Shown piece by piece: positions 5,819 through 59,019 of a DNA stretch of 64,000 nt. This DNA comes from Candidatus Altiarchaeota archaeon (GTDB lineage Archaea; Altiarchaeota; Altiarchaeia; IMC4; SCGC-AAA252-I15): assembly GCA_041306075.1 (NCBI GenBank), contig JBFYKH010000008.1:11482-75481 (forward strand), in the 5' to 3' direction. The first letter of the stretch is position 1; every line of letters starts with the position of its first letter. The notes under the pieces were generated by a model that saw only the letters and a program-made list of their open reading frames with translations, had not been told where the DNA came from and ran no database searches. The position numbers and the translations under genes are program-made.

Positions 5819-6139
5819 TTGATGGATTATAAGCCCAGGCCGTACAACAGATGGAACGATAGGAGGGACAGGAACCGCGCCGGCGGCACCGAGAGGAGGC
5901 TCATGCTCGACATGGGCCGCCAGAAGTACTTCCGGATGGACCTCGACGAGCTCCTGGAGTCGTTCAAAGTCGGCGAGAACAAGAGCATACTGGCCGCGAC
6001 CGTCCTCAACAAGATGTCCTCGCACTCCTTCGACGAGGCCTGCGAGTACCTGGGGAGGGTGCTGGAGGCCGGGAAGATAACCGAGGAGCAGGCCCACAGG
6101 ATAAAGGCCTTAATGCAGCGTTATACTAAGTGGAGGTAG
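5819..6139 (+). CDS. Hypothetical small protein (Arg-rich N-terminus)
   Basis: ORF only; no family recognised. Confidence 0.4.
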   Translation: MMDYKPRPYNRWNDRRDRNRAGGTERRLMLDMGRQKYFRMDLDELLESFKVGENKSILAATVLNKMSSHSFDEACEYLGRVLEAGKITEEQAHRIKALMQRYTKWR

Positions 6140-10536: not shown

Positions 10537-11835
10537 ATGATGAAGAGGATTGTTGCGGCTGCGGTTCTGTTGATGCTGGCGTCCTGCGCGTCCGCGCAGG
10601 CAAGGTATGATTCGGCGTCCATCGAGCCGCCTTACGTCGAGCCCGGAGACACCGTCGCCATCAACGTCAAGTTCCACGAGGGGCTGACCAAGAGGGAGAT
10701 ATACACGACTCCGGTTAGCGACGGCGAGAGGCTGCCCATCGGGGAGAAGGCCGACACATCATATTCCGCAGTCCTCGTCCCCAAGGACGAGGCCACTAGG
10801 CGCTACGTCCTGATAAAGGAGGGCGAAAGGCCGATAGGCCATCTATTCGCAGGCGAGACGTGGACAGCCCCCTTCGAAATCCAGGTCCTGGACGGCGCGC
10901 CGCCCACGAACTACACCCTCACGTTCCAGCTGGCGAGGGGAGGCCTCGAAGGCGCTAGGACGGAGGTCGCCCTCACGCGCGACATAACCGTGGTCGTGAA
11001 CGGGGCGCCGAAGTTCACCATCGACTCTGATAACGAGCTGTCCGCAGGCAAGGCCAATAGCTTCAGGGTGGCCATCGGAAACGTAGGCGGCGGGACGGCC
11101 AGGCAGGTCACAGTTACCATCAACGCGACTTCGCCGCTCACGGTGTTGAAGGCTTCGAGCCAGTACCTGGGGGACATGAACGGATTGTCGTCGAACACGC
11201 TCCACTACGACCTTTACGTTGACAGCACCGCCTCTCCGAAGGCATACACCATACCCGTCGAGATAAGGTATACCGACCGGGAGGGCGTCCAGCAGACGGT
11301 CGGAAAGATGCTGGGCGTCAAGGTCTCGGGGAACCCTAATGTCATGGCGAGCATCGACAGCTTCGACGACGCGAAGGGGGGCATGACCGGGAAGGTCACG
11401 GTCAGCGTCGCGAACAAGGGCTTCGTCGAGGCGAAGTTCCTTTCACTGAGCGTCCTTGACGGGGACAAGTATACAGTCACGTCGAAGAGCGACATGTACA
11501 TCGGCAACCTGGCTTCAGACGACTTCCAGTCCGAGGACTTCACAGTCAGGTTCGCGGACGGCGCGAGCGGCAAGGTGCCGCTGAAGGTTAGGGCCTCGTA
11601 CACCGAGGAGAACAACAACGGCGTCCACAACGAGGACTTTGAGCTTCCGATAAACGTGATGTCCCCTGAGGACTACGACAAGGCCCACCCGACGACAGAT
11701 AGCAGCCAGCATCTCGTAATGGTCGCGGTAGTGATACCGGCCCTGATAGTCGCCTACGTGGCATTGTGGCTCCTGTACAAGGTCGCCGGGGCCGTGACTG
11801 GATTCATAGACCGGAAGGTGTTCCGGAGAAAGTAG
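10537..11835 (+). CDS. Secreted CARDB/S-layer-like surface protein with C-terminal TM anchor (paralog of 2874..4523)
   Basis: Signal peptide MMKRIVAAAVLLMLASCASAQA, beta-rich repeats, C-terminal TM VMVAVVIPALIVAYVALWLLYKV + basic tail. Confidence 0.75.
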   Translation: MMKRIVAAAVLLMLASCASAQARYDSASIEPPYVEPGDTVAINVKFHEGLTKREIYTTPVSDGERLPIGEKADTSYSAVLVPKDEATRRYVLIKEGERPIGHLFAGETWTAPFEIQVLDGAPPTNYTLTFQLARGGLEGARTEVALTRDITVVVNGAPKFTIDSDNELSAGKANSFRVAIGNVGGGTARQVTVTINATSPLTVLKASSQYLGDMNGLSSNTLHYDLYVDSTASPKAYTIPVEIRYTDREGVQQTVGKMLGVKVSGNPNVMASIDSFDDAKGGMTGKVTVSVANKGFVEAKFLSLSVLDGDKYTVTSKSDMYIGNLASDDFQSEDFTVRFADGASGKVPLKVRASYTEENNNGVHNEDFELPINVMSPEDYDKAHPTTDSSQHLVMVAVVIPALIVAYVALWLLYKVAGAVTGFIDRKVFRRK

Positions 11836-45176: not shown

Positions 45177-48100
45177 TCACTCGCCCTTGTTCAGGGCTTG
45201 GAAGTACGCCACCCTGATTTTCGCGCCTATCTCGCTGATTTCCACTGCAAGCTTCCTGTATTCGCGCTGGTTCAGGGAGGCCGTCAGCCTGCTTGCCCCG
45301 GCTTCGAGGCCGCCGGTGTCGCCGCCCCGCCGTTGTATCTCCGTTATCATCGCCTGATGCCGGGCGACGACCGCTTCGAGCCGCGTGTACATGGACGAGT
45401 CCTGCTCCTCCGTCCGGCGCTCGCTCTCCACTGCCTTCTTGAGGGCGTCCTCCTCCCGCTGCATCTCCTCCGCTTTCTTCCTCGCGGCCTCCTGCCGCTC
45501 CATAGCCGTAAGGAGCCTCCAGGCTGCCAAGTCCGCAGTGAGTTTGTCCATGGCCTTTTGCCTGAGTTTGTCCAGGTTGTCTTTCCGCTTTTGCGCCTCC
45601 TTTATCTCTTCAGGCGTCGGCTCCGGGGTTTCCGGTGCGCGCTCCCGCTGCTTCGGCTCCTGGGTTTCGGAGGTTCGCTCAGGCGGCTTCGGCTCCCAAT
45701 TCGTCTGCGTCTTGGGCAGGGGGCCGCCGGACGTCGAGTCGGCGGTGGTCGCCGTCGACTTTGGGGGGGATAGGTCTATCCCGAGGAGGGTGGTCTTCGT
45801 CTCCAGGTCGTTGACGCTCCTGGCCCCTAGCTTGTCCAGAAGCTCCTGGGCGCCCTCCTTGTCTCCTCCCTTGAGCCTGGCCTTCACCTCCCTCAATGTC
45901 GAGCGCTTAAGCTCCGCGGCCACTCCCTCGGGCGTAGCCTCGACCGTGGACCCTTTCTTGGCGTATTTCTGGAGCCTTCCGGCCGCATCCTCGGCCCTGC
46001 CGTTCTTCAGGAGTTCGATTGCATCGTCCCTGGTCTGCGCGCGGCCGACGTATTCGTCCACCATCCGGGCGTCCATCTTGGCGAGGCTGGACAGCCCTTC
46101 TATAGTGTAGGAGGTCTTCAGTATGTTGCTCATCGTCTCGTTGTCCACCTTCCCGCGTATCTTCTCAAGGCCGTCGATTGCGTTGTATATGCTGTCCTTC
46201 AGCCGCCTTTTCTCCTCGACCGTGAGGTCTTTGCCGTACGCTTCGATGTAGGTGTCCCGCAGATGCCGCCTGACCTCTTCCGAGCCCCTGAAGCCTCCCT
46301 CGACCGAAGCCTCCGCCGGGAAGTACGAGTTCATCTCGTTTATCATCCTGAACTCGACCTCCCTGCGCTTCAGTATGTGTTTCCTAAGCCGCTCTATCTC
46401 CTTCTCGTCCGTTATGCCGGCCGCCTTCACCCGCTCGTCAAGCTCCTTCCGGGTCGCCGCCTCCAGCGCCTCCTTCCGGAGCGTGCTCATCGTGGCGTCA
46501 ACCCTGAACTTCTCGTGCGCGGCCTCGTGGACGACCGTCCTTTCCGTGTCGCTCCCTATGCTGGCCTGGCTGCCCTTCTCCAGGATTTCTCCGGAGATTA
46601 TGTTCAGGCCGACCACTTCGCCCTTCTTCGGCGGAGAGTTGAAGCCCCCCCAGTTGCCCTTGCTCTCCATGAACTTGTCGACGAGGCCGGGGGAGTCTCC
46701 CTTGCCCTTCCAGTCAGCCTTGTCAACCACTATCGCGTAGGGGGATATGTCGCCTATGCCGCTCGCCCTCATCCGCTCCATGTAAGCCTCGTTCGTGCTC
46801 AAATCGATGAAACTAGCGGACTTCAGGTCTTCGGCGGTGACGTCCTTGCCCCGCCGTTTAGTCGACTCGATTAGGTAGTTTACCGCCGCCTCCCTCTCCT
46901 TGGAGCCTTCGGCGGCGTTGAGCCCGGACAGTATCGCCTTGTGCTCTTCCTCGGCCCGGTCGTGCCGTATCTGCCTGACATGCCTTAGGATTCCCTCGAC
47001 CTGCTGGCCTGAAGCGCCTTCGGACCGCATCTTGTCGGTGATGATTCTGTCGGACATGTTGTATAGCGTCTCGTTCGTGGCGATGCCAGTGTCCCTGTTC
47101 CTGCGCATCTTGTCGAGGGCGGTTTTGACCGACGCGTCCGTCATAACCTGGTCGGGACTCATGCCGGTCATCCTGCCGACCATCTCAAGCTCGGCCGCGG
47201 CCTCGTTGTTGTCGTAGAGGCTCACGCCGTTGCGTTTCAGCGATTCGGCGTACGCCGTCTGCTCAGGCGTCAACGGCACATCGGCTGCATAAGCTCCCGG
47301 CATCGGGGTCGAGACGCCCAGGGATGCCCTGTCTCTCCTGCCGGAACGGGCGCCGCCAGCATCGGCCACCTGGCCCCCGAGCGGCCCGGAGCTGCCAGTC
47401 GGCTCCTGCATCATCTGGCTTGCCGGCACGTCCGGCGTGATGCCGCTCTTCTGCCAGAATTCTCCGGGTTGTATTTGCTTTGAGAGCTCCGGGTTCGAAG
47501 AGTATATGGAGGCGAGGTTCCGGGCCTTGACTTCGCCTGAGTCGAGCCTCTTCACGTAGTCCTGCACGGTGCTGGACTTGTATATGTCCGGCATGTTCCG
47601 CTCGAAGAGCTGCCTCTGCCCGCTCTCCTGGCTGAGGAGGAACCTCCAGTTCGGGTTGTTGTGGTCGAGGAAGTCGGCCTCTGTCTTGTAGGGGCCCGTA
47701 CCCCAGTTAGCCCTCGTGAACGACGTGTTCAGCACGTCGAAGTGGCTTTGCATCCGCTCCGTCCCCGAGCCGTCCTCCTTCCAGCGGAACCATCCGTTCG
47801 GGTTCCTGAACCCGAGTTCGGAATGCGTCCTGAGGTTCTCTATGTCCCGGTCGGCAAACGACGGGAACATCCCCTTGAGTTCGGCGGACGAGTAGCGTTC
47901 GGTGTTGCCGTGCCCGCTAACCCACCCCTTGAGGGAGAGCTCCATGCCCGTGAACCTGTTCCTCTGCAGGTCGTCGCTGAGGCTCTGCGCCTGCACCTGG
48001 ACGGCCTTCATCTCTTCGTCCGCTATCTGGCCTGCGAGGCCGCCTACGTAGCCGAGGCCGCCGGCGACGGTGCCGAGGCCGGGAAGCACTACCGTGCCTT

Positions 48101-51100
48101 TGGCGAGGGCTTCGGCGAGGCCTACAGCCCCGTCCGAGTATGACCCTGTCGCTTGAGCGCCCTCCTGGTAGCCGGCGTACGTCGCGAAGCCGGCGCCGAG
48201 CGCCCTGCCCGCCAGCGGGCCGGCCTTTGCCGAGAACTTGGGCGCTATCTTGGCTACCCCCGCCTCCACACCTTTTTGCGCAAGGCCTAAGCCGGCCATC
48301 TGGGCCGTGCTCACCCCTAGGTTGGCGGCGACCTGGCCTGCTTCGACCGGTTTGCCGCGCAGGACGTCTCCGGCCAGGTCTATGGCCTCGAACTGGGCTG
48401 CACCCTTCACGGACGACGTCAGGTGCGTGCCGACGCTGCGGAACACTCCATGCTTGGGGGCCTGACCCCCATCAGGCTGGGCTGCCGGAGAGACCATATG
48501 CCTTGGCATCGCCGGCGCCTCCACGAGTTGACCATCCATGTAGATGCTTGTCAAGCGGACCCCGGGCGGAATCTTCTCCAGGGTGAGGGCGTCGGTTAGT
48601 CCTCCGCTGACATGCTTTACCTTGAAGTCGAGTGCGCCCTGCGGGTTCTCGGTTACTGTGAGTTTAGCCACGGGCGTTGGAGCGCTCGGGCCATGGAGTT
48701 CGCCGCCGGAGAGGGTCGATATTTTCTGGCCTATTGAGCCTTTTTTTCGCTCAAGGATTTGGCTTGGGTAATAGGGTTTAACTACCGTCCCTGAGGGTAC
48801 CGGTCCGGTACCCTCCATCCTCACCTTTGTCTGGAGGCCGATGTCGGACTGTCTGAACGCGCCCGTGCTGCATGAGTCCAGGACGGTCACGACCCGCCCG
48901 GTCTCAGGCACGGTCCCCCGTATTATCTCAAGTGCCCTTTCGTTCGGTATCTCCTCGGTCTTTATCCCTGAGAAGAGTCCGAATTTAGTCTTTTTACTGT
49001 AGAGGTCTGAGGTCTTGAGGTAGGCCGGAGAGTTGTGGAGGTCTCCCTGGAATCGCGGGTCCTGCTGGTACGCGTAGGGGTCGCCGAGCTGTATAGAGTC
49101 TGGCGTCCCGTGCCCGCCCAGTATCCTGTATTGTGGGGCGCCGACCATCCGGGTGTGGCGTAGCATGGCCCTGGCCAGTTCCGGCGTGTTGCCGGCCTCG
49201 TAGAACATAAAGCCGTGGTCTTGGGCGAGTTTTATGTTGTCGGCCTGGTTGTAGAGCGCCCCGTTCCAGTCGGCCTTTGCGTTGACTATGATTCCGGAGT
49301 GTTTCGGTTTATACTGGCCGGATTCTATGAGCCGGTGCTGGTTGTACTGGTTGAGTAGGGCGTCGACGCCGTATCTGCCGAAGACCGTAATGCCGTATCT
49401 TTCATTCAGCAGTTTGGCTGCGCCAGGCTGCCTTTGCTCCAGGTCGTTGAGGACGCCTATGTTTGAGCCAAGGTGGTAGGGATTGTTCGCCCACCATGTG
49501 ACTGCCGTCCTCCCAGGGTTCAGCCCGGTTTTTGCAATAACTTCTTGCGCTACGAAGACGCTGGCAAATTTTTCGGACGGGCTTCCCATCTTGGAGGAAT
49601 GCGGCGGGGGGAGCTTTAACTTGCCGTCAGGAGACGGCAGGGGCTCGCCTCTCATCGCCGCTGCCAGATTGCTAGTCAGCGCAGCCCGGTTGATTGTGTC
49701 GCCGCCGGCCATGACATCCCTCATCAGCGCCGTAGCCCCCTTGCCGAATTCAGGGTCGTTTGCCGCCAGCTCGATGAGGTACCTCATCTTCATAGTTTCC
49801 GAGGGCAGGGGCGGAAGGGTTGTGGCGCCCACCCGGAGGGGCTTGATTTCCTGGGCGAAGTGGTTCAGTAGTTCGCCCTGGTTCTGCTTCAGGAACTCCT
49901 TTGCCCCCTGGTTGCCGTTCTGGATTTGGGTGTTGAGTTCATGAAGGGTGTTGTTGGCGGCTGCCTTGTCGCTCAGGCTGTCGAGGATGGCCTTGCGGTC
50001 CGCCTCAGCCGACGGCCCCGTGCCTGCCGCCGAAGCCCATATGCTCGAAGGGAACGGGGTTGTTTTTGGCGGCGTCCCGGCTACGGGTGTGGCCGCCGCC
50101 CCCAGCTTTACCGCCGGCATCATGGTTTTGTCGGCGATGTATTCTTCCGACGTCTGGCCTGTGACGGCCGGCGCTATCTCGGCGCGCTCCAGGATGCTTG
50201 CGGGGTCGCGCTGGAACAGCCGGTTGACGCCGCCTGCGGAGTCCGCCATCCCGAGCACCTGCCGTCTCACGTTGTCCGGGTCCCTAACCGCCCCGGTGTG
50301 GGCCATCTGCGACAGCTTGGATTCGAACCTCCTCGCCTCCTCGGCCGTGGCTCCGAGCCTCTCGTCCTCCTTGGGCGTGGCCAGTAGGCTGTTGTATGCC
50401 TGCATCTTCGCCTCCTCCTGCCGGTTCTCCGCTTCAATCCGCTCCGCGTATCTCTTGGCCTTCAGCTCGTCCTCGCTGACCGGCTGCCGGTCGGCTCCGG
50501 GGGGATTGGGTGCCGTCCCTTGTGGGGCCGGGGCTCTGGCCGTAGGCTCCCCGCCCGAGGGCACCGGCGCGCCGACCTTGGGCATCGGAGCGGCCGGAGG
50601 CTTCATGGGGCCTTGTGTCTGGATTTTGACGCCTGAGCCGTGCGCCGGCCCCGGCGATTCGGCCTGCCCCGGCGTCTGGGCTTCTGTTGTCGCGTTGACG
50701 GACGGGGGGATTTGCCGTCCGAGGCTGCCAGACTGCGCTCCGTCCTCCCTCATCACGGAGACGCCGCCGCCCGATGTGCCGGACGACGTCGACGAGACGA
50801 CGGTTGCGGGAGACTGCGATTCCTCGCTCATTGATGGCGACTCCTCTGCTGGCGCGCGCCTTGACGGCGGCCGTGGCTGTTGCGGCTGCCCCATGGAAGG
50901 AGGCCTCGCGGCTGAAGCCCGGGTTGCGCGGCGCGCAGCCGATTGCCCGCCGCCCGTCAACACCGCCGCCTGGGAGGATGACGAGGGAGCGTCCGGCGAG
51001 GACGGTGGGGATGGGGCTGAGGCCGCCCGCTGCAGCGTCGTCCCCGCTCCTGCCGCCCCGGCTCCGGCGATTACCGGGGCCGTGGACGCGTTGATTGGCA

Positions 51101-52412
51101 TGCCTGCGGGCGCCGTGGAGCCGCTTGCCCCATGCGCGCCCGAGGCGCCTGAGGAGGACATGGACCTTGGGCCGACACGCCCGCCCGAGAAAGGGGACCT
51201 TCCGCCCATAAACGGCCCGCCAGGCTCGCCGAGCCTGTCCATAGGCGAGTCCGGGACCTGCCCCTGCGCGCTTGGGCCGCCGCCCACGTGGTCGCCCACC
51301 AGGCGGCCGATTGTGAACAGCTGGGCGGACGTCGTGACCGCGGTCGCCACGCTGCCTGAGCGCATCCAGGTACCGAGGAACCTCGTCATCTGGGTCACAG
51401 GCCTCACACCCGACACAGTTACGAGGGCGCCTATCCACCCCATCATCTGCATGCCAACCATGGGGGCGAGGAGGACTCCGAGGTAGGCGGCTAGCATGAG
51501 TATGAAGTCAAGGAGCGTCGGGGCGTACGCGGTGTTCGCGAGCATGAGGCCGACGCACAGGAACAGCGTCTGGAGTATCTGGACCATGAAGATGAGTATC
51601 GTGAACTTCCAGAGCCTGGTTCCGATGCCCCGCATTGAGAAGAGCGGGTTCGGTATGTCCGTGAAGAACATGAAGAGGATGAGCGGGAATATGCACGCCA
51701 TCACGTAGACGAGGAAGTACCGGTAGGCGGCAAGCGGCGCCGCAATAGCCGTGACTATGAGGAAGAACAGCATGGTGCAGCAGTATTTCGCTTCGGTGAA
51801 CGTGAAGACCACGGTCGACACCGTGGTGACCGAGGACCGGGACAGCGCCGTCTGTATGAGGGTGTCGCATATCTCCCGGACTATGTCCAGCATGAACTGG
51901 AATATCGCCGGCGAGAGCGAGACCAGGACCATGCCGACGAACACTCGGACGAACATGTCCTTCGCGTTCACCCTCCCCTGCGGGGAGCCGGACATGAATA
52001 TCAGGTAAATACCTATCATGATTATGGCGAGGGCGTAGAAGAGCTGCAGCATCTCCATTATCCTGACGTTGACCGCCCGGATGCCCTGGTCCTCCGGCAT
52101 GCTGAACTCGACCTGGCCGCCGTCTATCAGGTGTATCACGTATGCCTCGCAGTCGCCGCTCGGCGCAAAGACGCACGGGTTGATTTGCGTGAACACCCAG
52201 ATGGGCGTGAGCGTCACCTCCAGTATGGTTTCCGAGACCAGTTCGACGAACGCCTTGGCCGCCTCGAAGACCATGAGGACCCACAGGTTGGCGCCCCAGA
52301 TCTGCGCGATAACGGGGGTTGCTATGAGGAGGAGGACGGCGAAGGCTATCGCTAGCCTGCGTGCGACGACTTTTCGGCCTTTCGGCTCCCCGTCTTGAGA
52401 ATCTGCCATCAA
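45177..52412 (-). CDS. Giant (2411 aa) polytopic membrane protein: signal peptide + ~6-TM module, Pro/Ser/Gly/Ala-rich linker, ~1600-aa hydrophilic region with caspase/CHAT-like His...Cys motifs, HExxH motif and C-terminal coiled coil
   Basis: Single uninterrupted ORF. The N-terminal TM module is homologous to that of the upstream 52409..55585 gene (FYALAIIMIGIYLIFMSGSPQGRVNAKDMFVRVFVGMVLVSLSPAIFQFMLDIV vs LYALLIILTGIYYVWASISPNIRAMVKTQLTYLIVGMIACGLSLQIFDILLEL). 4-nt start/stop overlap (ATGA) with the upstream gene. Confidence 0.8.
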   Translation of the reverse strand: MMADSQDGEPKGRKVVARRLAIAFAVLLLIATPVIAQIWGANLWVLMVFEAAKAFVELVSETILEVTLTPIWVFTQINPCVFAPSGDCEAYVIHLIDGGQVEFSMPEDQGIRAVNVRIMEMLQLFYALAIIMIGIYLIFMSGSPQGRVNAKDMFVRVFVGMVLVSLSPAIFQFMLDIVREICDTLIQTALSRSSVTTVSTVVFTFTEAKYCCTMLFFLIVTAIAAPLAAYRYFLVYVMACIFPLILFMFFTDIPNPLFSMRGIGTRLWKFTILIFMVQILQTLFLCVGLMLANTAYAPTLLDFILMLAAYLGVLLAPMVGMQMMGWIGALVTVSGVRPVTQMTRFLGTWMRSGSVATAVTTSAQLFTIGRLVGDHVGGGPSAQGQVPDSPMDRLGEPGGPFMGGRSPFSGGRVGPRSMSSSGASGAHGASGSTAPAGMPINASTAPVIAGAGAAGAGTTLQRAASAPSPPSSPDAPSSSSQAAVLTGGGQSAARRATRASAARPPSMGQPQQPRPPSRRAPAEESPSMSEESQSPATVVSSTSSGTSGGGVSVMREDGAQSGSLGRQIPPSVNATTEAQTPGQAESPGPAHGSGVKIQTQGPMKPPAAPMPKVGAPVPSGGEPTARAPAPQGTAPNPPGADRQPVSEDELKAKRYAERIEAENRQEEAKMQAYNSLLATPKEDERLGATAEEARRFESKLSQMAHTGAVRDPDNVRRQVLGMADSAGGVNRLFQRDPASILERAEIAPAVTGQTSEEYIADKTMMPAVKLGAAATPVAGTPPKTTPFPSSIWASAAGTGPSAEADRKAILDSLSDKAAANNTLHELNTQIQNGNQGAKEFLKQNQGELLNHFAQEIKPLRVGATTLPPLPSETMKMRYLIELAANDPEFGKGATALMRDVMAGGDTINRAALTSNLAAAMRGEPLPSPDGKLKLPPPHSSKMGSPSEKFASVFVAQEVIAKTGLNPGRTAVTWWANNPYHLGSNIGVLNDLEQRQPGAAKLLNERYGITVFGRYGVDALLNQYNQHRLIESGQYKPKHSGIIVNAKADWNGALYNQADNIKLAQDHGFMFYEAGNTPELARAMLRHTRMVGAPQYRILGGHGTPDSIQLGDPYAYQQDPRFQGDLHNSPAYLKTSDLYSKKTKFGLFSGIKTEEIPNERALEIIRGTVPETGRVVTVLDSCSTGAFRQSDIGLQTKVRMEGTGPVPSGTVVKPYYPSQILERKKGSIGQKISTLSGGELHGPSAPTPVAKLTVTENPQGALDFKVKHVSGGLTDALTLEKIPPGVRLTSIYMDGQLVEAPAMPRHMVSPAAQPDGGQAPKHGVFRSVGTHLTSSVKGAAQFEAIDLAGDVLRGKPVEAGQVAANLGVSTAQMAGLGLAQKGVEAGVAKIAPKFSAKAGPLAGRALGAGFATYAGYQEGAQATGSYSDGAVGLAEALAKGTVVLPGLGTVAGGLGYVGGLAGQIADEEMKAVQVQAQSLSDDLQRNRFTGMELSLKGWVSGHGNTERYSSAELKGMFPSFADRDIENLRTHSELGFRNPNGWFRWKEDGSGTERMQSHFDVLNTSFTRANWGTGPYKTEADFLDHNNPNWRFLLSQESGQRQLFERNMPDIYKSSTVQDYVKRLDSGEVKARNLASIYSSNPELSKQIQPGEFWQKSGITPDVPASQMMQEPTGSSGPLGGQVADAGGARSGRRDRASLGVSTPMPGAYAADVPLTPEQTAYAESLKRNGVSLYDNNEAAAELEMVGRMTGMSPDQVMTDASVKTALDKMRRNRDTGIATNETLYNMSDRIITDKMRSEGASGQQVEGILRHVRQIRHDRAEEEHKAILSGLNAAEGSKEREAAVNYLIESTKRRGKDVTAEDLKSASFIDLSTNEAYMERMRASGIGDISPYAIVVDKADWKGKGDSPGLVDKFMESKGNWGGFNSPPKKGEVVGLNIISGEILEKGSQASIGSDTERTVVHEAAHEKFRVDATMSTLRKEALEAATRKELDERVKAAGITDEKEIERLRKHILKRREVEFRMINEMNSYFPAEASVEGGFRGSEEVRRHLRDTYIEAYGKDLTVEEKRRLKDSIYNAIDGLEKIRGKVDNETMSNILKTSYTIEGLSSLAKMDARMVDEYVGRAQTRDDAIELLKNGRAEDAAGRLQKYAKKGSTVEATPEGVAAELKRSTLREVKARLKGGDKEGAQELLDKLGARSVNDLETKTTLLGIDLSPPKSTATTADSTSGGPLPKTQTNWEPKPPERTSETQEPKQRERAPETPEPTPEEIKEAQKRKDNLDKLRQKAMDKLTADLAAWRLLTAMERQEAARKKAEEMQREEDALKKAVESERRTEEQDSSMYTRLEAVVARHQAMITEIQRRGGDTGGLEAGASRLTASLNQREYRKLAVEISEIGAKIRVAYFQALNKGE

Positions 52413-55400
52413 CCACCCCCCCGGCCGGGTTTCTGTTTGGCCAGGGATTCGATGAGGGCGTACCTTTGCGCCCGGTTAACGTCGTTGTTGGCCCTCGCCA
52501 GGTATTCGCCCTGGTTTGTGACGCCAGCCCAGTTCTTCTTGGCCGCGTCCGAGTATGCGAGGTATGCCGCGTGATACCGCACGTTCTGGCTGCTCATCCT
52601 GGATTTGACAGCCCCTCCCGAGAGCGCATCCTTGGCCGCGTTCAGGTACTGCTCACGCTCATTCTGGCCGAGGCCCGAGTAGACCTGCCAGGCCACGGCC
52701 TCGCCGTCTCCGACGTCGGAGTATGCGCTGTCGCGCCTGTCGCGGGCGGACCTGAGGTTTGCCGCGGCCGCCCCGGACGTCCTTTCCCATTCGGCCACGT
52801 CATGGCCGAACAGCTTCTGTTCTGCGGCGGACAGGCCGGTCCACGTCTTGCCCATGATGGCAGCCGCTTCCGCCTGCGGGAGCGCCTTCCAGCCGGGGCT
52901 GTTCAGGTCCTTCGATTCGAACGCCGCCTGGGCTCTTGATTCGCTCTTCTGCCTGCCTTCGGCGGCATCGGACAGTTCGTCCCTGGCCTTAGACACGCCG
53001 TCCAGGGAGAGGTCTTGGGGGGATGTGGTGTAAAGACCCATGAGCCCTACGTCCGTGATTGTGGTCTGCACGGCCTGCGACTGCGAGACCCCGGCATACC
53101 TTCCGTACGCCTTGTTCATCGCCTGCTCGACCCTGCTCCTTGATTTCGCGTCCTGTGCGCCCTCGTAGTCCTTCTTCCAGCCCATCCGCTTGCGCATGTT
53201 CTCCGGTGTCGCCTCCCACACGTCCTGCCGGTCCAACAGGACGGCGTTGCGGTTGGCGTCGAGGGCCTCGGCTTTCGCGAGCTTGTCGTTGGCTCCGCCC
53301 TTGCCGTCGTAGCCGAGCTGGGCCTGCCGCCATTGTGGCGTGCCCCCCCACGCCTTGTCTTCAGTGACCGCTGCCGCGCGCTGGTAGAAACCGTACGCCC
53401 GGTCGACTGCCCCGGCCCGGGTGGACGGGTCATCCTCCTTGTAGCCGAACGACTTCAGTTCCCGGTCGGTGAGGGATGCGCGGACCTGGTCCTTGGACAT
53501 CTGCCCCCCGTTCTTGGCTTCGGCCTCCATTAGCTTCTCCTGTATCGGCTTGCGTTCCTGCGCCTTCGCGCGGATGTTGTTGTGCGCCTCCCCGTCTCCT
53601 GCCACCCTCTCGCCCATCCGCTTGAACATCCTTGTGCCTGTGCCCATCGCGACCGCGGCAGTGGCCATTATACCGAGGCCCACCACGGGCGCCATGGGCA
53701 GCATGAGAAGTGCTATTGGAAACCCTAGTTTAGAGCCGAGTATTGCTGCCTTCACCGCCGGCGGCGTGCCCTCTCCCGGCTTGTATCCCTTGTACATGTC
53801 GGCTGCGGTGTTCGCGAGGTCTCCGGATATGCCCTTGACGCTGAGCCAGCCGTGGTTGAACATGGTCTTGCCGGTCGCAGGGTCCTTCTCCCAGCGGCCG
53901 GTCATCTTCCACGAGACGTTGGCAAGGCTCTTGCCTATCGGGTAGTCGGCTATGCTTCCGCGGAGCATGCCCCTCAGGAAGTAGCCGGCGGGGGGCAAGA
54001 GGAACTTCGCGTTGGCTGCGAGGCCGGCGGCCTGCCACCCCACCTTCCCCAGGCCTGAGGACTGCGCGTAGCGCATGCCATAGTACTGCTGCGACGACAT
54101 GTACTCCGGGGGCGTGCCGGCCTCGACCGGGTCCCCGAAGAGCAGCCTGTTCCGCCTCTCCTGTAGGCTGATGCCCTTGTCGAAGACGCCTCCGCCGGCG
54201 GCTCCCGTCTCCCGGACGCCGTCCCCGAGGCCGCTCTGTGCATAAGTCGGCTTAGACCCCGACGCCGCAAGATGCTCCGCTGAAGCCTTCCTGGCGCCTT
54301 CGGAGTACGGCGGCGGAGGCTGAGCCGCCCCGGCGCCAAGCGGCCCATCCCCCCTTGAGGGGATGTTGTAGCCCGCGGCCGACGCCTCGGAGGCCTGAGT
54401 CCTCGACGACAGCCGTTCCGCGTGCATGGCAGCCGAGGTTATGGCCGCGGCGCCCTGGCCCTGTATCATGCTCCCGATGAACACCAGCCTCGGGTTGCCC
54501 ATAGTCTGGCCCGCGTAGATGAACGCGGCTCCTGCGATGCCGGTCATGCTGGCTATCATCATCGGGCTGAACCCTATCATCGCGAACGCGACGAGCGCCG
54601 CCATGGCGCTCGTCAAAGCCATGCCCAGGGAGGACGCGGTGTCGAGGAAGGCCTGGGACAGCACCATGAATATGGCCATGGGAATCGGCAGGAATATCCA
54701 CGTCAGCGTGAGCTTCATCAGCTTGTTGCCCATGCCCCGGAGGTAGTCGAACGACATGCAGAATACCGTGAACGGAAATATACCGCCGAAGACCAGGACG
54801 ACGTCGAAGCGGATGGCCAGTATTATGTACGGGAGGATTATCGCGGCCACGAGCATCAGCACGATAGGCCATATGAGCGCGACCCCGACTCCGCCGGTGG
54901 CGACGAGTATCAGCGCTATGATGCTGCCTCCGACGGCTACTCCCGGGAGTCCGGTCTTCAGGAACCCCGTGATAGGGTCCCAGTTGGTTGGCACTATCCG
55001 GTTGCCAGCAAACTGGACGCTCAGTATCTCGTCGAGGAGGAAGTTGTTCAGTTCGAGGAGTATGTCGAATATCTGCAGGGAGAGCCCGCACGCTATCATG
55101 CCGACTATCAGGTAGGTGAGCTGCGTCTTCACCATGGCGCGGATGTTCGGGGATATGGACGCCCAGACGTAGTATATTCCCGTCAGTATTATGAGGAGGG
55201 CGTAGAGGGGTATCAGGAGGTTGAATATCGTCGGGGCCAGGAACTCCCGTATCACCGGGTGCCTGGAGTCAAGGTCGCGTATCTGGACCGGGACGACGCC
55301 CAGGAACTTGCTCCTCTTCCCGTAGAGGAGGCCCATGAACATGCCCCTGTAGGTCTTTATGCCGCTGAGGGAGTGGAGCATCGTGTCGCCGCCTTTTGCG

Positions 55401-55585
55401 ACTATGACCTTCCCGGACTGGTCCTTGGCGTTATCGGTGTCCTTCGAACTCCTCTTGTCCATATCCTCCCCGGTGAGGGGATTCTCGTTGCCCTGGGCCT
55501 GGACGGAGAGGGCGTACTGTGACAACAGGAGGCAGGACGCGACATAGACGAGTAAAACGCGTTTTATTATCTCACCCTTCGCCAT
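52409..55585 (-). CDS. Large (~1058 aa) polytopic membrane protein, paralogous N-terminal module to the 2411-aa protein, helical C-terminal region with one extra TM pair
   Basis: Signal peptide MAKGEIIKRVLLVYVASCLLLSQYALSVQAQG. Start set at 55585 because the TATA-like cttaaatata overlaps the first ATG at 55609. Six TMs, then a Gly/Ala/Pro linker and an Ala/Lys/Glu-rich helical domain. Confidence 0.8.
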   Translation of the reverse strand: MAKGEIIKRVLLVYVASCLLLSQYALSVQAQGNENPLTGEDMDKRSSKDTDNAKDQSGKVIVAKGGDTMLHSLSGIKTYRGMFMGLLYGKRSKFLGVVPVQIRDLDSRHPVIREFLAPTIFNLLIPLYALLIILTGIYYVWASISPNIRAMVKTQLTYLIVGMIACGLSLQIFDILLELNNFLLDEILSVQFAGNRIVPTNWDPITGFLKTGLPGVAVGGSIIALILVATGGVGVALIWPIVLMLVAAIILPYIILAIRFDVVLVFGGIFPFTVFCMSFDYLRGMGNKLMKLTLTWIFLPIPMAIFMVLSQAFLDTASSLGMALTSAMAALVAFAMIGFSPMMIASMTGIAGAAFIYAGQTMGNPRLVFIGSMIQGQGAAAITSAAMHAERLSSRTQASEASAAGYNIPSRGDGPLGAGAAQPPPPYSEGARKASAEHLAASGSKPTYAQSGLGDGVRETGAAGGGVFDKGISLQERRNRLLFGDPVEAGTPPEYMSSQQYYGMRYAQSSGLGKVGWQAAGLAANAKFLLPPAGYFLRGMLRGSIADYPIGKSLANVSWKMTGRWEKDPATGKTMFNHGWLSVKGISGDLANTAADMYKGYKPGEGTPPAVKAAILGSKLGFPIALLMLPMAPVVGLGIMATAAVAMGTGTRMFKRMGERVAGDGEAHNNIRAKAQERKPIQEKLMEAEAKNGGQMSKDQVRASLTDRELKSFGYKEDDPSTRAGAVDRAYGFYQRAAAVTEDKAWGGTPQWRQAQLGYDGKGGANDKLAKAEALDANRNAVLLDRQDVWEATPENMRKRMGWKKDYEGAQDAKSRSRVEQAMNKAYGRYAGVSQSQAVQTTITDVGLMGLYTTSPQDLSLDGVSKARDELSDAAEGRQKSESRAQAAFESKDLNSPGWKALPQAEAAAIMGKTWTGLSAAEQKLFGHDVAEWERTSGAAAANLRSARDRRDSAYSDVGDGEAVAWQVYSGLGQNEREQYLNAAKDALSGGAVKSRMSSQNVRYHAAYLAYSDAAKKNWAGVTNQGEYLARANNDVNRAQRYALIESLAKQKPGRGGG

Positions 55586-55695
55586 GCCATTTAGGATTTG
55601 GTGTTGCATATATTTAAGGGGTATTTGGACGGGTTCGCGGCCTTTTTTTAACGTTTTATTGGCGCTCGGGTAATGTAGTTCAAGGTAGCGTCAAA

Positions 55696-56427
55696 ATGGC
55701 CTCGGACAGATGCCAGACGGGCATAAAGGGATTCGACGAACTTGTTGGCGGCGGCCTTCCGAGGGGGAGGACGATACTGGTGAACGGCTCGTGCGGCACC
55801 GGCAAGACCGTGTTCTCGACGCAGTTCCTCTACAACGGGGCGGTGCATTACGGCGAGCCCGGGATATACGTCATGCTGGAGCAGGACGTCTGCGAGTTCA
55901 AGGACGACATGGCGGGCTTCGGCCTCAACCTGCAGAAGCTGCAGTCCGAGGGGAAGCTGGTCATAATCAACGCCAGCCTGACGAAGAGGGAGGGGGGGAA
56001 CTTCCTGGAGCTCAAGTCCGAGACGCACGACATAAGCCCGGACATGGCCTCCGTCAACAAGATTTGCGACGTGATACAGGAGGCGGCGACGAAGATAAAG
56101 GCCAAGAGGGCGGTAATAGACAGCCTCAGCTCGATGACGATAACCTTCGACGACACGCAGGCCTTGAGGAGGGTCGTCCTGGACCTGAACTACACGCTGA
56201 AGAAGATGGGCTTAACCACCCTCATCATATCCGACGAGATAGCCGGCGACGTGACCGAAGCCGCCCAGAAATACGTGGTCGACGGGGTCCTGACGCTCAG
56301 GTATGTGACGGTCGGGCCCGACCCGGGCAGGACGCTGGTGATAGACAAGATGCGCAAGACCCGCCACAGCGAGAACATACACGCCTTGAAGTTCACAAAG
56401 GATGGCATTGAGATTCAGAAGGAGTAA
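55696..56427 (+). CDS. Single-domain KaiC/RadA-like (RecA-superfamily) ATPase
   Basis: GIKGFDELVGGGLPRGRTILVNGSCGTGKTVFSTQFLYNG (Walker A), Walker B LVIIDSLSS. ~240 aa, as in ArlH/KaiC-like archaeal ATPases. Confidence 0.85.
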   Translation: MASDRCQTGIKGFDELVGGGLPRGRTILVNGSCGTGKTVFSTQFLYNGAVHYGEPGIYVMLEQDVCEFKDDMAGFGLNLQKLQSEGKLVIINASLTKREGGNFLELKSETHDISPDMASVNKICDVIQEAATKIKAKRAVIDSLSSMTITFDDTQALRRVVLDLNYTLKKMGLTTLIISDEIAGDVTEAAQKYVVDGVLTLRYVTVGPDPGRTLVIDKMRKTRHSENIHALKFTKDGIEIQKE

Positions 56428-56431
56428 TGTG

Positions 56432-57991
56432 ATGAAGGGCACCCCCTACCTCTTGTTCCTGGCCTTGGCGCTCGCGGCCCTGCCGTCCGCCTCGGCGCAG
56501 GTCGAGCAGGCGCCGAGGATGGAGCCGCTCGCGCTCTACGAGCCGCCAGAGGCGCAGGACGAGTACGCCGGGGACGTGGGGAGGGCGATAACCCGGTACT
56601 TCTGCCAGGGCGTGGGGGACGGCGGCCGCTGCAGGATACAGGAGGCCTGGGACAGCCGCCTCCAGGGAGTGTGCTGCTTCGGCTCATGCTGGTTCGGCGC
56701 CGCGAAATGCGTCCAGGGCACGCAGCCGAAACCCCAATACGACCTCTACGGCATGTTCCAGAAGTTCGCGTGCAACGGCGTCCAGGAGGGCCTGGACTGC
56801 ATGATACCAGATAAGCTTTCCGCGGAGGTGGGCTACAAGCTCTCCGGGAAATGCTGCCGCGGCCGCTGCATGCTCGGCTCCACCGGCTGCGGGGGCATAT
56901 GCGGGGACGGCTTATGCACCGACCAGGAGAGGGCCGGTGGAAACTGCCACGACGACTGCGGAAGCTCCTGCGGCGACGGCTACTGCACCGACCGGGAGCG
57001 GAAGGACGGGAACTGCATGGAGGACTGCGGCGGCTCAAGGCCGCCGGAAGCGGGCGGAGCCGACTTCGAGGGCAGGCTCAAGGAGATGGAGGCGCTCGCC
57101 TGCCTCGGGGTCGCGGACGGCAGGGCGTGCAACCTCCCCAAGGACCTTCAAACCACCTTCGGGCTAAGCGGAGTCTGCTGCGGAGGAAGATGCGCGTACA
57201 GGAGGACCATTTGCGAAAAAAAACCCGTGGCCGCGAAGCCGGACCTGGCCGTGTCAGCCATCAGGGTGAGCCCGAAAGTCCACGGAGTCGATGAGCCGGT
57301 CAACGTGACCGTGGACGTCAAGAACATCGGGGACGGCCCGGCGAACGCCAGCTTCTGGGTGAGGCTGAGGGTCGAGGACCGCTCAGGAAGGGATTTGGCC
57401 GACTACGACGTGGAGGTCAACGGCCCGATGGCCCCGGAAGCCTCGGCCGAGGCGGCGTTCCATGACGTGTCATGCCCCGCCGACGCGAACCCGTGCATAC
57501 TGAAGGCCGACGTGGACGAAGGCAGCGGCCTCATGCCCGCCAGGATGGACCGGGTGGACGAATCCAGGGAGGACAACAACTTCGCAGCTGTCGGCTTCAA
57601 CGCCAGGGAGAAGCCGTGGGAACCCCCATGCGGCGACGGAGTATGCTCCGAGGGGGAGAAGTGCGACGCCGACTGCAGGCGCGAAACCCCGGCGGACAAC
57701 ACGCAGGCCATCGCCTTCGCCGCCCTGGCCGTTGGGGCGCTCGCCCTCGCCGCGTACCTCGTCACGAGGAGGAGGGGCCCTAAACCCGAACCAGCGAAGC
57801 CCTCCCAGGGCCAGTCCGTGGAGGATTTGACGAGGCAGAAGGAGGAGATAGAGAAGATGCTCGAAATCGCGAAGGCGAAGTACCACCGGCGCGAGCTAGA
57901 CGAGGAGAGCTTCAGGGAGATAGTCAGGGACAACCAGAAGAGGATAATAGAGCTCGAACTCAAGATAAGGGTCAACAGGCCCTTCGACTAG
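56432..57991 (+). CDS. Cys-rich modular surface protein: signal peptide, three ~40-aa six-Cys modules, two CGDGxCTxxER-x4-NC-x2-DCG repeats, CARDB-like Ig domain, TM anchor, cytoplasmic coiled-coil tail
   Basis: Modules ...CQGVGDGGRCRI...GVCCFGSCWFGAAKC / CNGVQEGLDCMI...GKCCRGRCMLGSTGC / CLGVADGRACNL...GVCCGGRCAYRRTIC. Repeats ICGDGLCTDQERAGGNCHDDCGSSCGDGYCTDRERKDGNCMEDCG. CARDB-like PDLAVSAIRVSP...VNVTVDVKNIGDG. TM AIAFAALAVGALALAAYLV. Confidence 0.7.
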   Translation: MKGTPYLLFLALALAALPSASAQVEQAPRMEPLALYEPPEAQDEYAGDVGRAITRYFCQGVGDGGRCRIQEAWDSRLQGVCCFGSCWFGAAKCVQGTQPKPQYDLYGMFQKFACNGVQEGLDCMIPDKLSAEVGYKLSGKCCRGRCMLGSTGCGGICGDGLCTDQERAGGNCHDDCGSSCGDGYCTDRERKDGNCMEDCGGSRPPEAGGADFEGRLKEMEALACLGVADGRACNLPKDLQTTFGLSGVCCGGRCAYRRTICEKKPVAAKPDLAVSAIRVSPKVHGVDEPVNVTVDVKNIGDGPANASFWVRLRVEDRSGRDLADYDVEVNGPMAPEASAEAAFHDVSCPADANPCILKADVDEGSGLMPARMDRVDESREDNNFAAVGFNAREKPWEPPCGDGVCSEGEKCDADCRRETPADNTQAIAFAALAVGALALAAYLVTRRRGPKPEPAKPSQGQSVEDLTRQKEEIEKMLEIAKAKYHRRELDEESFREIVRDNQKRIIELELKIRVNRPFD

Positions 57992-59019
57992 GCGTGGCTA
58001 ACCAGCTTGGCCGAGCCCCCCTGTCCGCCGCCCCACCAGCGCACGGAGTATCTCCGCCCGTGGAGCGTGAGCGTGCTGGAGCAGGTCATGTCGAAGTCCG
58101 ATGAGAGCGCGGGAGACGATGCGCGAAGCTTCACCCCGCCGGGCGCAAGCCCCACGACCCTGAAGTACGCCCCGTCGGCTGTTACGTTCCTGCCGCCGTC
58201 CACTATGAAAGCCGACGCCCCCGGGTAGACCACGACGTCCCGGGAACAGTACCTGTCCCCCCCGTGGCGGCCGTAGTCGGCGGAGTCGTCCAAGAGGTAG
58301 ATGAGGGCGCGCCCCCCTCCCAGTCGCGTGTCGAGGACGCCGTACTCGAGCGTCCTCCAGTAACCTATGCCGCCTTCGGGGACGTCGACGAGGACAGTCT
58401 CGTTGCCCCTCGTCAGCCGCAGCTTGACCTTCCCGGAAAGGAGGTTGTCCAGGCTGACGTTGTATCCCGCGTACGTCCTCGTCGACAGCCCGCCGCCTAT
58501 CGTCAGCGGCCTGCCGCCCTGCGGCGTCTTCTCCCTGACCTCCGCGTTCTCCACCAAAGCCAGCGTCAGGTCGCCCCCCTCCCCGGTTATGGACGCCTCG
58601 ACCCCGTCGATGAGCGCCCGGTGGGAGACCTCAAGCCGGTCCCAGTAGCCTTCGGACGTGTTGTATTCAAGCTCGTAGACTGGCCTGCCATCTGACTCCT
58701 CCACGCCTGTCAGGTAGAACGTCATCCCCCCCGCCCGCAGGTAGACGCGCTGCTTCAGGGGCAGCCTCATGGTGGTGGTAGTGGACGTAGACGACGTCGT
58801 GGACTCGATTATCCTGGCGGCCTTGAGGGTCGTCGAAGTCGTCGGCGGACCCCTCAGGGGGTTTATGGGGACGTACCTGTGGGTGGACGTCGTGGGGCCT
58901 TTGGTGGTGGACGTCATCTCCTTTGCGGACACCTTCTCGTCCTCGGGCACTCCCGGCGGCTGAATAAGGCATCCCGACAGCACCAGCATGAGGGTCACGC
59001 ACGCGACAGGAAGCCTCAT
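57988..59019 (-). CDS. Secreted lipoprotein-like hypothetical protein with Thr/Ser-rich linker
   Basis: Signal + lipobox-like MRLPVACVTLMLVLSGC, T/S-rich stretches (TSTTKGPTTST, TTSSTSTTTT), beta-rich remainder. Confidence 0.5.
   Translation of the reverse strand: MRLPVACVTLMLVLSGCLIQPPGVPEDEKVSAKEMTSTTKGPTTSTHRYVPINPLRGPPTTSTTLKAARIIESTTSSTSTTTTMRLPLKQRVYLRAGGMTFYLTGVEESDGRPVYELEYNTSEGYWDRLEVSHRALIDGVEASITGEGGDLTLALVENAEVREKTPQGGRPLTIGGGLSTRTYAGYNVSLDNLLSGKVKLRLTRGNETVLVDVPEGGIGYWRTLEYGVLDTRLGGGRALIYLLDDSADYGRHGGDRYCSRDVVVYPGASAFIVDGGRNVTADGAYFRVVGLAPGGVKLRASSPALSSDFDMTCSSTLTLHGRRYSVRWWGGGQGGSAKLVSHA

Follow-up and report, generated by a model that had tools for sequence, protein, structure and literature searches.

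A cysteine-rich, CARDB-containing protein of Altiarchaeota with a widely shared, predicted cytoplasmic tail and conserved gene linkage to a KaiC-like ATPase

Background

KaiC-like ATPases are abundant in archaea and have been proposed to serve as signalling hubs, their partners being mostly unknown (PMC4858521, PMC5847659). According to PMC5847659 and PMC4858521, which cite the work, KaiC "signal transduction hub" neighbourhoods were described by Makarova, Galperin and Koonin in 2017. Among systems studied by experiment, the nearest model for the gene pair described below is ArlX-ArlH of the crenarchaeal archaellum motor, in which the cytosolic domain of ArlX, a protein with a single transmembrane (TM) helix, binds the KaiC-like ArlH (review PMC8978795). 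Here we analyse a gene for a cysteine-rich, putative membrane protein (positions 56432-57991, + strand) and the KaiC-like ATPase gene directly upstream of it. Both lie in a 64,000-nucleotide stretch of contig JBFYKH010000008.1 from a Candidatus Altiarchaeota archaeon (positions 11,482 to 75,481 of the contig; hereafter the window, to which all coordinates refer unless a locus is named).

We tentatively propose that the cysteine-rich protein is a lineage-specific receptor or adhesin coupled through its C-terminal tail to the KaiC-like ATPase. The literature searched contained nothing specific on Altiarchaeota together with either cysteine-rich proteins or KaiC, and described no such membrane input to KaiC hubs in this archaeal lineage. 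The pair offers a concrete, testable candidate membrane input for archaeal KaiC signalling. Related proteins and loci are designated below by P and L numbers, respectively.

Results

A conserved gene pair with a KaiC-like ATPase

The open reading frame (ORF) at 56432-57991 (+) is real and, read from the ATG at 56432, encodes a protein of 519 amino acids (aa) with 32 cysteines. The public gene call begins upstream of this ATG, at 56402; comparison with relatives supports 56432 as the likelier start codon, the junction formed by the KaiC TAA stop, one base and the ATG being found in five of them.

The neighbouring gene (55696..56427, +), whose stop codon lies 4 nt ahead of this ATG, encodes a single-domain KaiC-like ATPase of 243 aa. 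It belongs to the Pfam KaiC family (PF06745, E = 7.7e-62, residues 6-242, profile positions 1-228 of 231); a Walker A motif (GSCGTGKT) and a Walker B-like motif (AVIDSLS) are visible in its sequence, and its nearest matches among solved structures are KaiC CI domains (best 8zn5_B, E = 3.8e-60), followed by the single-domain proteins PH0186 and PH0284. Because it scores under every NCBIfam equivalog cut-off, it is neither a clock KaiC nor ArlH. An identity as ArlH/FlaH was rejected at 61.8 bits against a cut-off of 215 (NF052589); the neighbours examined were ribosomal/SecY and housekeeping genes, with no archaellum or type IV pilus genes among them. The double-domain circadian KaiC was likewise discarded, the protein having one domain and scoring 167.8 bits against 408 (NF006799) and 138.9 against 546 (TIGR02655).

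A link between the two genes had been suspected from their adjacency in the window, and synteny bears it out. KaiC lies directly upstream, on the same strand and with a gap of 1-4 nt, in all eight close orthologous loci (the window, L001, L002, L004, L005, L006, L007 and L013), while the other flanks differ between these loci, with a SecY/ribosomal cluster in some and unrelated genes elsewhere. At the loci of two distant CARDB-type orthologues, P0052 (L048) and P0024 (L049), KaiC likewise precedes the cysteine-rich gene on the same strand, a small ORF lying between the two, and the KaiC proteins are 35-37% identical to that of the window. The pair is therefore present in 10 of 10 CARDB-type orthologous loci.

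Four further families of proteins bearing the same C-terminal tail adjoin KaiC paralogues or sit within two genes of them. The first consists of single-TM proteins of about 170 aa (L030, L037, L022), followed by a 287-aa KaiC with an insertion; the second, proteins of about 160 aa with three TM helices (L033, L038), followed by a 246-aa KaiC. The third is a solute-binding-protein fusion (P0084, L047) with KaiC two genes upstream, and the fourth (P0146, L044) is a single chain in which a TM helix and the tail are joined to a DUF7504/KaiC-like domain, KaiC lying two genes downstream. The KaiC paralogues beside the tail families share only 25-46% identity with one another, and the tail-KaiC linkage has therefore arisen or persisted independently. 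Within the 5-kb flanks on either side of the scanned loci, every KaiC match adjoins a tail gene and none occurs elsewhere.

Several details of these loci may be recorded here. The ORF that separates KaiC from the cysteine-rich gene in the lower-GC loci L048 (3586-3984) and L049 (1974-2375) is conserved and encodes a cytoplasmic protein of 132 aa with no Pfam family; by eye it looked Roadblock-like, for which Pfam gives no support. A homologue of it (31-33% identity) lies near a tail-bearing Cdc48-like gene in the SM1 genome (L041 7709-8023, -). In L030 (262-2233) and L037 (4105-6061) the small tail family belongs to a unit of three genes. These encode, in order, a TM protein without Pfam family (about 175 aa), the tail protein of about 170 aa (one TM helix, coiled coil, tail) and the 287-aa KaiC, whose insertion is a coiled coil of about 45 aa. 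L024, L029 and L032 have the first two of these genes and no KaiC, and the TM protein, Hsp20-like by eye, finds no support for that identity in Pfam. In P0146 (L044 1825-3051) the TM helix is N-terminal and is followed by a coiled coil, the tail and, at the C-terminus, the DUF7504/KaiC-like domain, which apparently lacks a P-loop; a small winged-helix gene (weak Pfam match) lies just upstream of the fusion gene, and the downstream KaiC is canonical.

A tail module shared by many proteins

The tail (aa 460-515, 57809..57976, +; core AKAKYHRRELDEESFREIVRDNQKRIIELELKI) is the best-conserved segment of the protein, with a mean identity among homologues of 75%, against about 40% elsewhere; the mean identity to the window protein is 38% for CARDB and 17-26% for the linkers and the TM helix. 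The initial annotation described it as a cytoplasmic coiled coil. A helical tail on the predicted cytoplasmic side is indeed found, of about 55 aa; it is modelled not as a coiled coil but as a hairpin of two helices (463-485 and 491-515) with a predicted local distance difference test score (pLDDT) of about 90.

A profile built from 11 tails was used for an exhaustive search of 1.84 billion representative proteins and matched 232 protein clusters at E <= 1e-3, 107 of them at E <= 1e-10; the window protein itself scored 3.1e-32. We inspected the architecture of 156 tail proteins. The tail lies at most 30 residues from the C-terminus in 135 of these, and a TM helix is found at most 60 residues upstream of it, typically 20-30, in 103. 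Six-Cys modules like those of the window protein (described below) occur in 26 of the 156, CGDG-type units in 22, and about 20 proteins carry two tails in tandem. At least 150 clusters share the tail while having unrelated N-terminal parts, among which are CARDB, dockerin with PKD, a solute-binding protein, a beta-propeller with CARDB, CBM96, a carboxypeptidase-regulatory-like domain and bacterial PH. Some tail proteins are small, with 1-3 TM helices, and a few are soluble.

The family core reads K-Y-[HY]-K-R-x-L-D-E-[ED]-S-[FY]-x-E-I-V-x-D-x-Q-x-K-L-I-E-I-E, a pattern to which the window protein conforms, and the consensus of 153 tails is L5 ... K22-Y-H-K-R26-x-L-D29-E30-E-S-F-R-E-I36-V-x-D-x-Q41-K-K-L-I45-E-I-E48. 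K22, R26, D29, E30, Q41 and E48 are conserved in at least 87% of the 153 sequences, matching the hydrophobic core in this respect, and the conserved K-Y-H-K-R-x-L-D-E-E-S-F block falls at the predicted hairpin turn.

Searched alone against Pfam at E <= 10, the tail matched only LPD7 (0.013) and DUF7229 (0.018), far below the cut-offs and at chance level. SHOCT (PF09851) was considered and rejected, since it gave no profile match in Pfam at E <= 10, and the sole PDB sequence matches of the tail profile, designed helical repeat proteins (dTor), were dismissed as spurious. With the tail as sole query, a word-indexed search for homologues yielded just 4 fragments, the index being limited for short queries. 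Within the window, a 106-aa ORF at 5819-6139 (+) matches the tail profile weakly (E = 9.4e-4, GRQKYFRMDLDELLESF), apparently by chance.

A genome scan with the tail gave 37 loci, with several tail genes per genome. The labelled loci belong to Altiarchaeota, Altiarchaeales or Altiarchaeia, bar one bin labelled only Euryarchaeota, and the rest are unlabelled archaeal bins. The soluble tail proteins include two classes. Cdc48-like double AAA+ ATPases bear the tail near the C-terminus or internally (P0140; L011 2-2299; L041 2226-5648, the last from Ca. Altiarchaeales IMC4 SM1), which suggests that the tail also links cytoplasmic machines. Giant TPR-rich proteins of 1400-1630 aa, devoid of TM helices, end in the tail in L031 (339-5228; P0153, 1629 aa), L035 and L040.

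Domain architecture and predicted topology

The order of domains and the membrane topology claimed from the initial reading held up, the ORF, modules, CARDB, TM helix and tail all being located. From the N-terminus the protein consists of a signal peptide, six-Cys modules 1 and 2, two CGDG units, module 3, CARDB, a third four-Cys unit, the TM helix and the tail. The signal peptide (aa 1-23, MKGTPYLLFLALALAALPSASAQ, 56432..56500, +) was recognised by sequence reading as a hydrophobic core followed by a SASA-Q motif. The single TM helix (aa 424-447, 57701..57772, +) appears both as a helix in the AlphaFold model and in a hydropathy scan, and is followed by the basic stretch RRRGPK. According to the established positive-inside rule, a basic stretch after a TM helix marks the cytoplasmic side. 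Because of this stretch and the signal-peptide-like N-terminus, the protein is expected to adopt a type-I topology, with its outer part outside and its tail in the cytoplasm.

The full protein was modelled with AlphaFold2 from the 16-sequence family alignment, and module 3 was also modelled alone, both as single chains; the full-length model has a mean pLDDT of 73.5. Pfam, run on the whole protein, recognised CARDB as the sole family, and NCBIfam no meaningful one. The CARDB domain, an Ig-like beta-sandwich (aa 269-389, 57236..57598, +; pLDDT about 90), matches PF07705 with 25.3 bits against a gathering cut-off of 22.7 (E = 1.8e-5, residues 269-384, profile positions 1-98 of 101). In Foldseek its model finds 2kl6 and 3idu (PF1109 CARDB) as best PDB matches, with E about 1e-6 and target-normalised template-modelling scores of 0.71-0.78. 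Profile score and fold both place the domain in this family. The whole-protein model recovered nothing else from the PDB in Foldseek.

Six-Cys modules

Three six-Cys modules span C58-C93, C114-C153 and C224-C261, all matching C-x-G-V-x-[DE]-G-x2-C and G-x-CC-x-G-x-C. Module 1 (aa 42-95, 56555..56716, +) has a lead-in helix and the spacing C-x8-C-x13-CC-x3-C-x6-C (pLDDT about 89; E = 4e-17 with the module hidden Markov model, HMM); in module 2 (aa 102-155, 56735..56896, +; HMM E = 3.9e-17) the second loop is x17, and in module 3 (aa 210-263, 57059..57220, +; HMM E = 2e-18) it is x15. The three copies noted at the outset are thus present, with a final spacing of C-x6-C instead of the x5 first given. 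The pattern C-x8-C-x13-17-CC-x3-C-x6-C occurs 65 times in 26 tail-bearing proteins, against 0.015 expected in composition-preserving shuffles, and among all loci scanned with the module HMM the module is confined to tail-bearing proteins.

Cysteine spacing is conserved in the homologues and the gene is not fragmented in them: every module cysteine is kept wherever its module exists, the sole exceptions in the protein being C348 and C355 inside CARDB. The modules have a mean identity of 40-54% to the window protein in the homologue alignment, module 3 being the best conserved of the three. In the full-protein model each consists of a lead-in helix, a loop, a short helix and a beta-hairpin, with pLDDT about 85-89. 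Module 3 modelled alone gives a pLDDT of 89.4 and a predicted template-modelling score of 0.67, with helices at 3-13 and 28-33 and strands at 38-41 and 44-47. Their cysteines would presumably be paired in disulfides.

The suggestion that the modules might form knottin or EGF-like folds found no support in these models and searches, although a remote relationship is conceivable. Pfam, searched with the N-terminal 243 residues (residues 23-265), returned no family even at E <= 10; in Foldseek against the PDB the single-module model found nothing below E = 2.5, the best matches, tick evasins, being rejected (E >= 2.5, probability 0.09). The predicted fold has two helices and a two-stranded hairpin, not the three-stranded sheet of about 30 aa of knottins, and the spacing has a CC pair and lacks the C-x-C of EGF. 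The framework C-C-CC-C-C, with six cysteines in about 36-40 residues and an adjacent CC pair, is shared with knottins (inhibitor cystine knots) and hevein-like domains, as is a small beta-hairpin bearing Cys 3, 4 and 5; the module differs from them in its much longer second loop (13-17 residues), two helices and two-stranded hairpin, and from knottin, hevein and EGF alike in lacking matches in Pfam or Foldseek/PDB. A profile of 41 aligned modules found no relative among PDB sequences, a lone match at E = 1.7 being rejected as spurious; the module has no sequence match in Pfam, NCBIfam or the PDB. Used in the word-indexed homologue search, the profile gave no match, again with an index limited for short queries.

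Four-Cys CGDG units

Two tandem four-Cys units (aa 157-176 and 180-199, 56900..57028, +) lie between modules 2 and 3, as had been noted, with the pattern CGDGxCTDxER-x3-NCxxDCG, in which x3 replaces the x4 of the original description. Their cysteines are spaced C-x4-C-x9-C-x3-C with a period of 23 aa, and at the DNA level they form a 69-bp tandem repeat (1.9 copies, 75% match, 56900-57030; Tandem Repeats Finder). A third, shorter, membrane-adjacent unit, CGDGVCSEGEKCDADC (aa 400-415, 57629..57676, +), was recognised in the sequence just ahead of the TM helix and is absent from the initial annotation; its cysteines are conserved in 15 of the 16 homologues. Copy number at the first site varies from 1 to 3 among orthologues, and the units have a mean identity of 58-64% to the window protein in the homologue alignment. 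AlphaFold models them with low confidence (pLDDT 44-58).

The Myxococcus cysteine-rich repeat (TIGR02232 / DUF4215) also starts with C-G-[DN]-G, shows a pattern of an acidic residue followed by Cys, and forms short tandem extracellular repeats. These are its points of resemblance to the CGDG units. The unit here has four cysteines, and an identity with this family was rejected, as it was absent from the matches in NCBIfam at E <= 1 and in Pfam at E <= 10. Taken together, the six-Cys module, the CGDG unit and the tail have no counterpart in Pfam or NCBIfam and are not mentioned in the literature searched.

Homologues

The word-indexed search with the protein gave 16 homologues of 26-73% identity, and all the named ones are from Candidatus Altiarchaeota or Altiarchaeales. 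The protein is thus specific to Altiarchaeota as judged from all labelled relatives. The initial view that such modules are unusual for archaeal surface proteins can be retained in a narrower form, namely that they were found just in Altiarchaeota and in unlabelled archaeal bins. Module and repeat counts differ between homologues through copy-number variation and module loss: P0011 and P0012 are missing modules 1 and 2, and P0016 has a fourth module in place of CARDB.

Surrounding genes

Divergently upstream of KaiC, the window contains two very large ORFs with overlapping stop and start (45177-52412, -, 2411 aa; 52409-55609, -, 1066 aa). Both begin with a multi-TM region at the N-terminus and continue in long stretches that are Pro/Ser/Ala-rich or charged, and neither matches Pfam or PADLOC; the larger contains a HEAAHE (HExxH-like) motif. 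PADLOC gave no link to anti-phage defence. On the other side, a 343-aa ORF (57988-59019, -) is convergent with the cysteine-rich gene, their ends sharing 4 nt. Its product carries a lipobox-like signal (LVLSGC) as well as a Thr/Ser-rich linker and belongs to no Pfam family; ORFs of similar size occupy its place, between the cysteine-rich gene and SecY, in L002 and L005. Sulfatase and arylsulfotransferase genes flank the KaiC/cysteine-rich pair in L001 and L004. In the former, an Altiarchaeales genome, a 340-aa DsbA/thioredoxin-like protein is encoded five genes downstream of the cysteine-rich homologue (L001 15911-16933, -), which bears on whether external disulfides are made.

Discussion

Proposed role of the pair

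In the role we tentatively propose, the outer part would lie outside the cell, or between two membranes if the lineage is double-membraned like Ca. Altiarchaeum, whose cell envelope has two membranes (PMC6098224) and is itself poorly understood. It would form a stalk of small, Cys-stabilised modules and CARDB that most likely binds a ligand, a surface or an envelope component. The hairpin tail, predicted to enter the cytoplasm 20-30 residues past the TM helix, would couple the protein to the presumably co-transcribed single-domain KaiC-like ATPase, either by docking directly on the ATPase ring or by way of tail oligomers. A KaiC-type switch might thereby have its nucleotide or phosphorylation state tied to envelope events, or receptor clustering might be under the control of the ATPase. 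We consider tail-KaiC coupling a candidate because the operon is conserved, the tail is conserved, the linkage recurs in four more families and ArlX-ArlH provides a precedent; physical contact between tail and KaiC, the direction of any signalling, disulfides in the Cys modules and the ligand are inferred.

Several observations weigh against such coupling. Many tail genes have no KaiC nearby, including those of L008, L015-L018, L023, L026 and L027 as well as P0125 (L045) and P0051 (L046). Among them are the 277-aa short form in L008 and the three-module relatives without CARDB from AT-rich genomes (L017, L023, L026, L027), while members of the same small families in L020, L024, L029 and L032, and the Cdc48-like and TPR tail proteins, are likewise without KaiC linkage. 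The presence of the tail on soluble AAA+ and giant TPR proteins suits a general tail-to-tail adaptor at least as well. Conservation of the hairpin-turn block may be partly structural (helix capping) and not a matter of an interface. Finally, the evidence for coupling to KaiC is gene linkage, and adjacency alone can reflect co-regulation without contact.

Alternative explanations

The main rival, which we regard as possible if somewhat doubtful, sees in the tail a homotypic adaptor or clustering domain whose hairpins pack into bundles and so gather many Altiarchaeota membrane proteins. The tail-bearing Cdc48-like AAA+ proteins, TPR scaffolds and the iKaiC fusion would be recruited by the same means, and the neighbouring KaiC would regulate or use the assembly without binding the tail, an arrangement we hold possible to the same limited extent. 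The predicted fold of the tail is an amphipathic helical hairpin, in keeping with this reading, and the occurrence of one tail on at least 150 clusters with unrelated N-terminal parts, among them soluble AAA+ proteins (P0140, L011, L041) and TPR proteins (P0153, L031, L035, L040), fits it, as do the roughly 20 proteins with two tandem tails and the near-identical tails of paralogues within one genome, which mutual compatibility would require. Yet homotypic packing alone leaves five diverged KaiC paralogues beside tail genes unexplained, and charged positions as strongly conserved as these would be uncommon in a bundle interface that is purely hydrophobic. Homotypic clustering is, moreover, compatible with coupling to KaiC.

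That the protein is a static component of the envelope seems unlikely to us. Its Cys modules and CARDB would then act as a rigid spacer or adhesin, the tail would merely anchor or orient it, and KaiC would lie beside it through inherited gene order, with no coupling of function. CARDB is a domain typical of cell-surface proteins in archaea, the variable repeats and module loss (P0011, P0012, P0013, P0016, P0022) resemble those of fast-evolving surface proteins, and the three-module relatives lacking CARDB (L017, L023, L026, L027) have no KaiC neighbour. A simple anchor, however, needs no 55-aa tail conserved above the level of the outer domains, and inherited order accords poorly with a pairing that survives down to about 35% KaiC identity and the complete turnover of other neighbours, or with the independent tail-KaiC pairings of other families. 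Still less probable, in our view, is that the Cys units form no structural disulfides and instead bind a metal (Zn, Fe or others) or sense thiol redox or sulfide, reporting the status of the habitat to a KaiC switch. Altiarchaeota are anaerobes, and stable external disulfides are less obvious in anoxic, often sulfidic habitats; the four-Cys CGDG units, with their C-x4-C...C-x3-C spacing and conserved D, E and N, look like small metal-binding knuckles, and their model without ligand is poor; the solved CARDB structure 3idu binds two metal ions, according to its title. Against this stand the even Cys counts (6 and 4), the fixed CC doublet in the beta-hairpin and the ligand-free pLDDT of 89, all typical of disulfide-rich mini-domains, together with the DsbA/thioredoxin-like gene in the vicinity of one homologous locus (L001). 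Pfam and NCBIfam gave no match to a known metal-site motif or family.

Implications

A more far-reaching reading, about which we are rather sceptical, would make the tail a cytoplasmic docking tag, used throughout the phylum, that plugs varied membrane proteins into KaiC-like rings and into Cdc48-like AAA+ and TPR scaffolds. Its scope, with the same reservation, would extend to at least 150 clusters, whose outer domains are Cys modules, CARDB, dockerin, solute-binding, beta-propeller and others. If true, this docking tag would amount to a transmembrane network from receptors to KaiC, with a logic like that of chemoreceptor-CheA arrays or eukaryotic receptor-adaptor systems. The 55-residue tail peptide and the 243-residue ATPase are easily made recombinantly, so that the coupling proposed here is testable in vitro though the organisms are uncultured. 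Independently of the function of the pair, the three modules new to Pfam and NCBIfam (six-Cys, CGDG and tail) would improve the annotation of Altiarchaeota envelope proteins.

Comparison with known systems

With CARDB surface proteins such as PF1109 and MA_4588 the window protein shares a true CARDB beta-sandwich as a middle domain; this accounts for only about 120 of its 519 residues, and the Cys modules, CGDG units and tail are foreign to that family. The KaiC hub neighbourhoods, as far as they are related in the papers citing them, likewise pair a stand-alone ATPase of the KaiC family with a putative input or partner protein, the two genes forming a conserved unit. The partners named there (KaiB-like, a DEATH-like helical protein, REC, HalOD1 and MEDS) are cytoplasmic, whereas the partner described here is putatively a membrane protein of type I, and its tail is novel. 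The concept of a KaiC-like ATPase that has a partner is known; a type-I membrane partner with a shared tail appears, within the literature searched, to be undescribed.

The ArlX-ArlH pair comes closest. There, as here, one gene cluster encodes a single-TM protein with a helical domain, cytosolic in ArlX and predicted to be so in the window protein, together with a single-domain KaiC-like ATPase. The KaiC partner here is not ArlH, and the tail has no sequence similarity to families described in Pfam and NCBIfam. The two membrane proteins are also built differently: in ArlX the TM helix is N-terminal and an outer domain is lacking, whereas in the protein of the window the TM helix lies near the C-terminus, below a large part made of Cys-rich units and CARDB.

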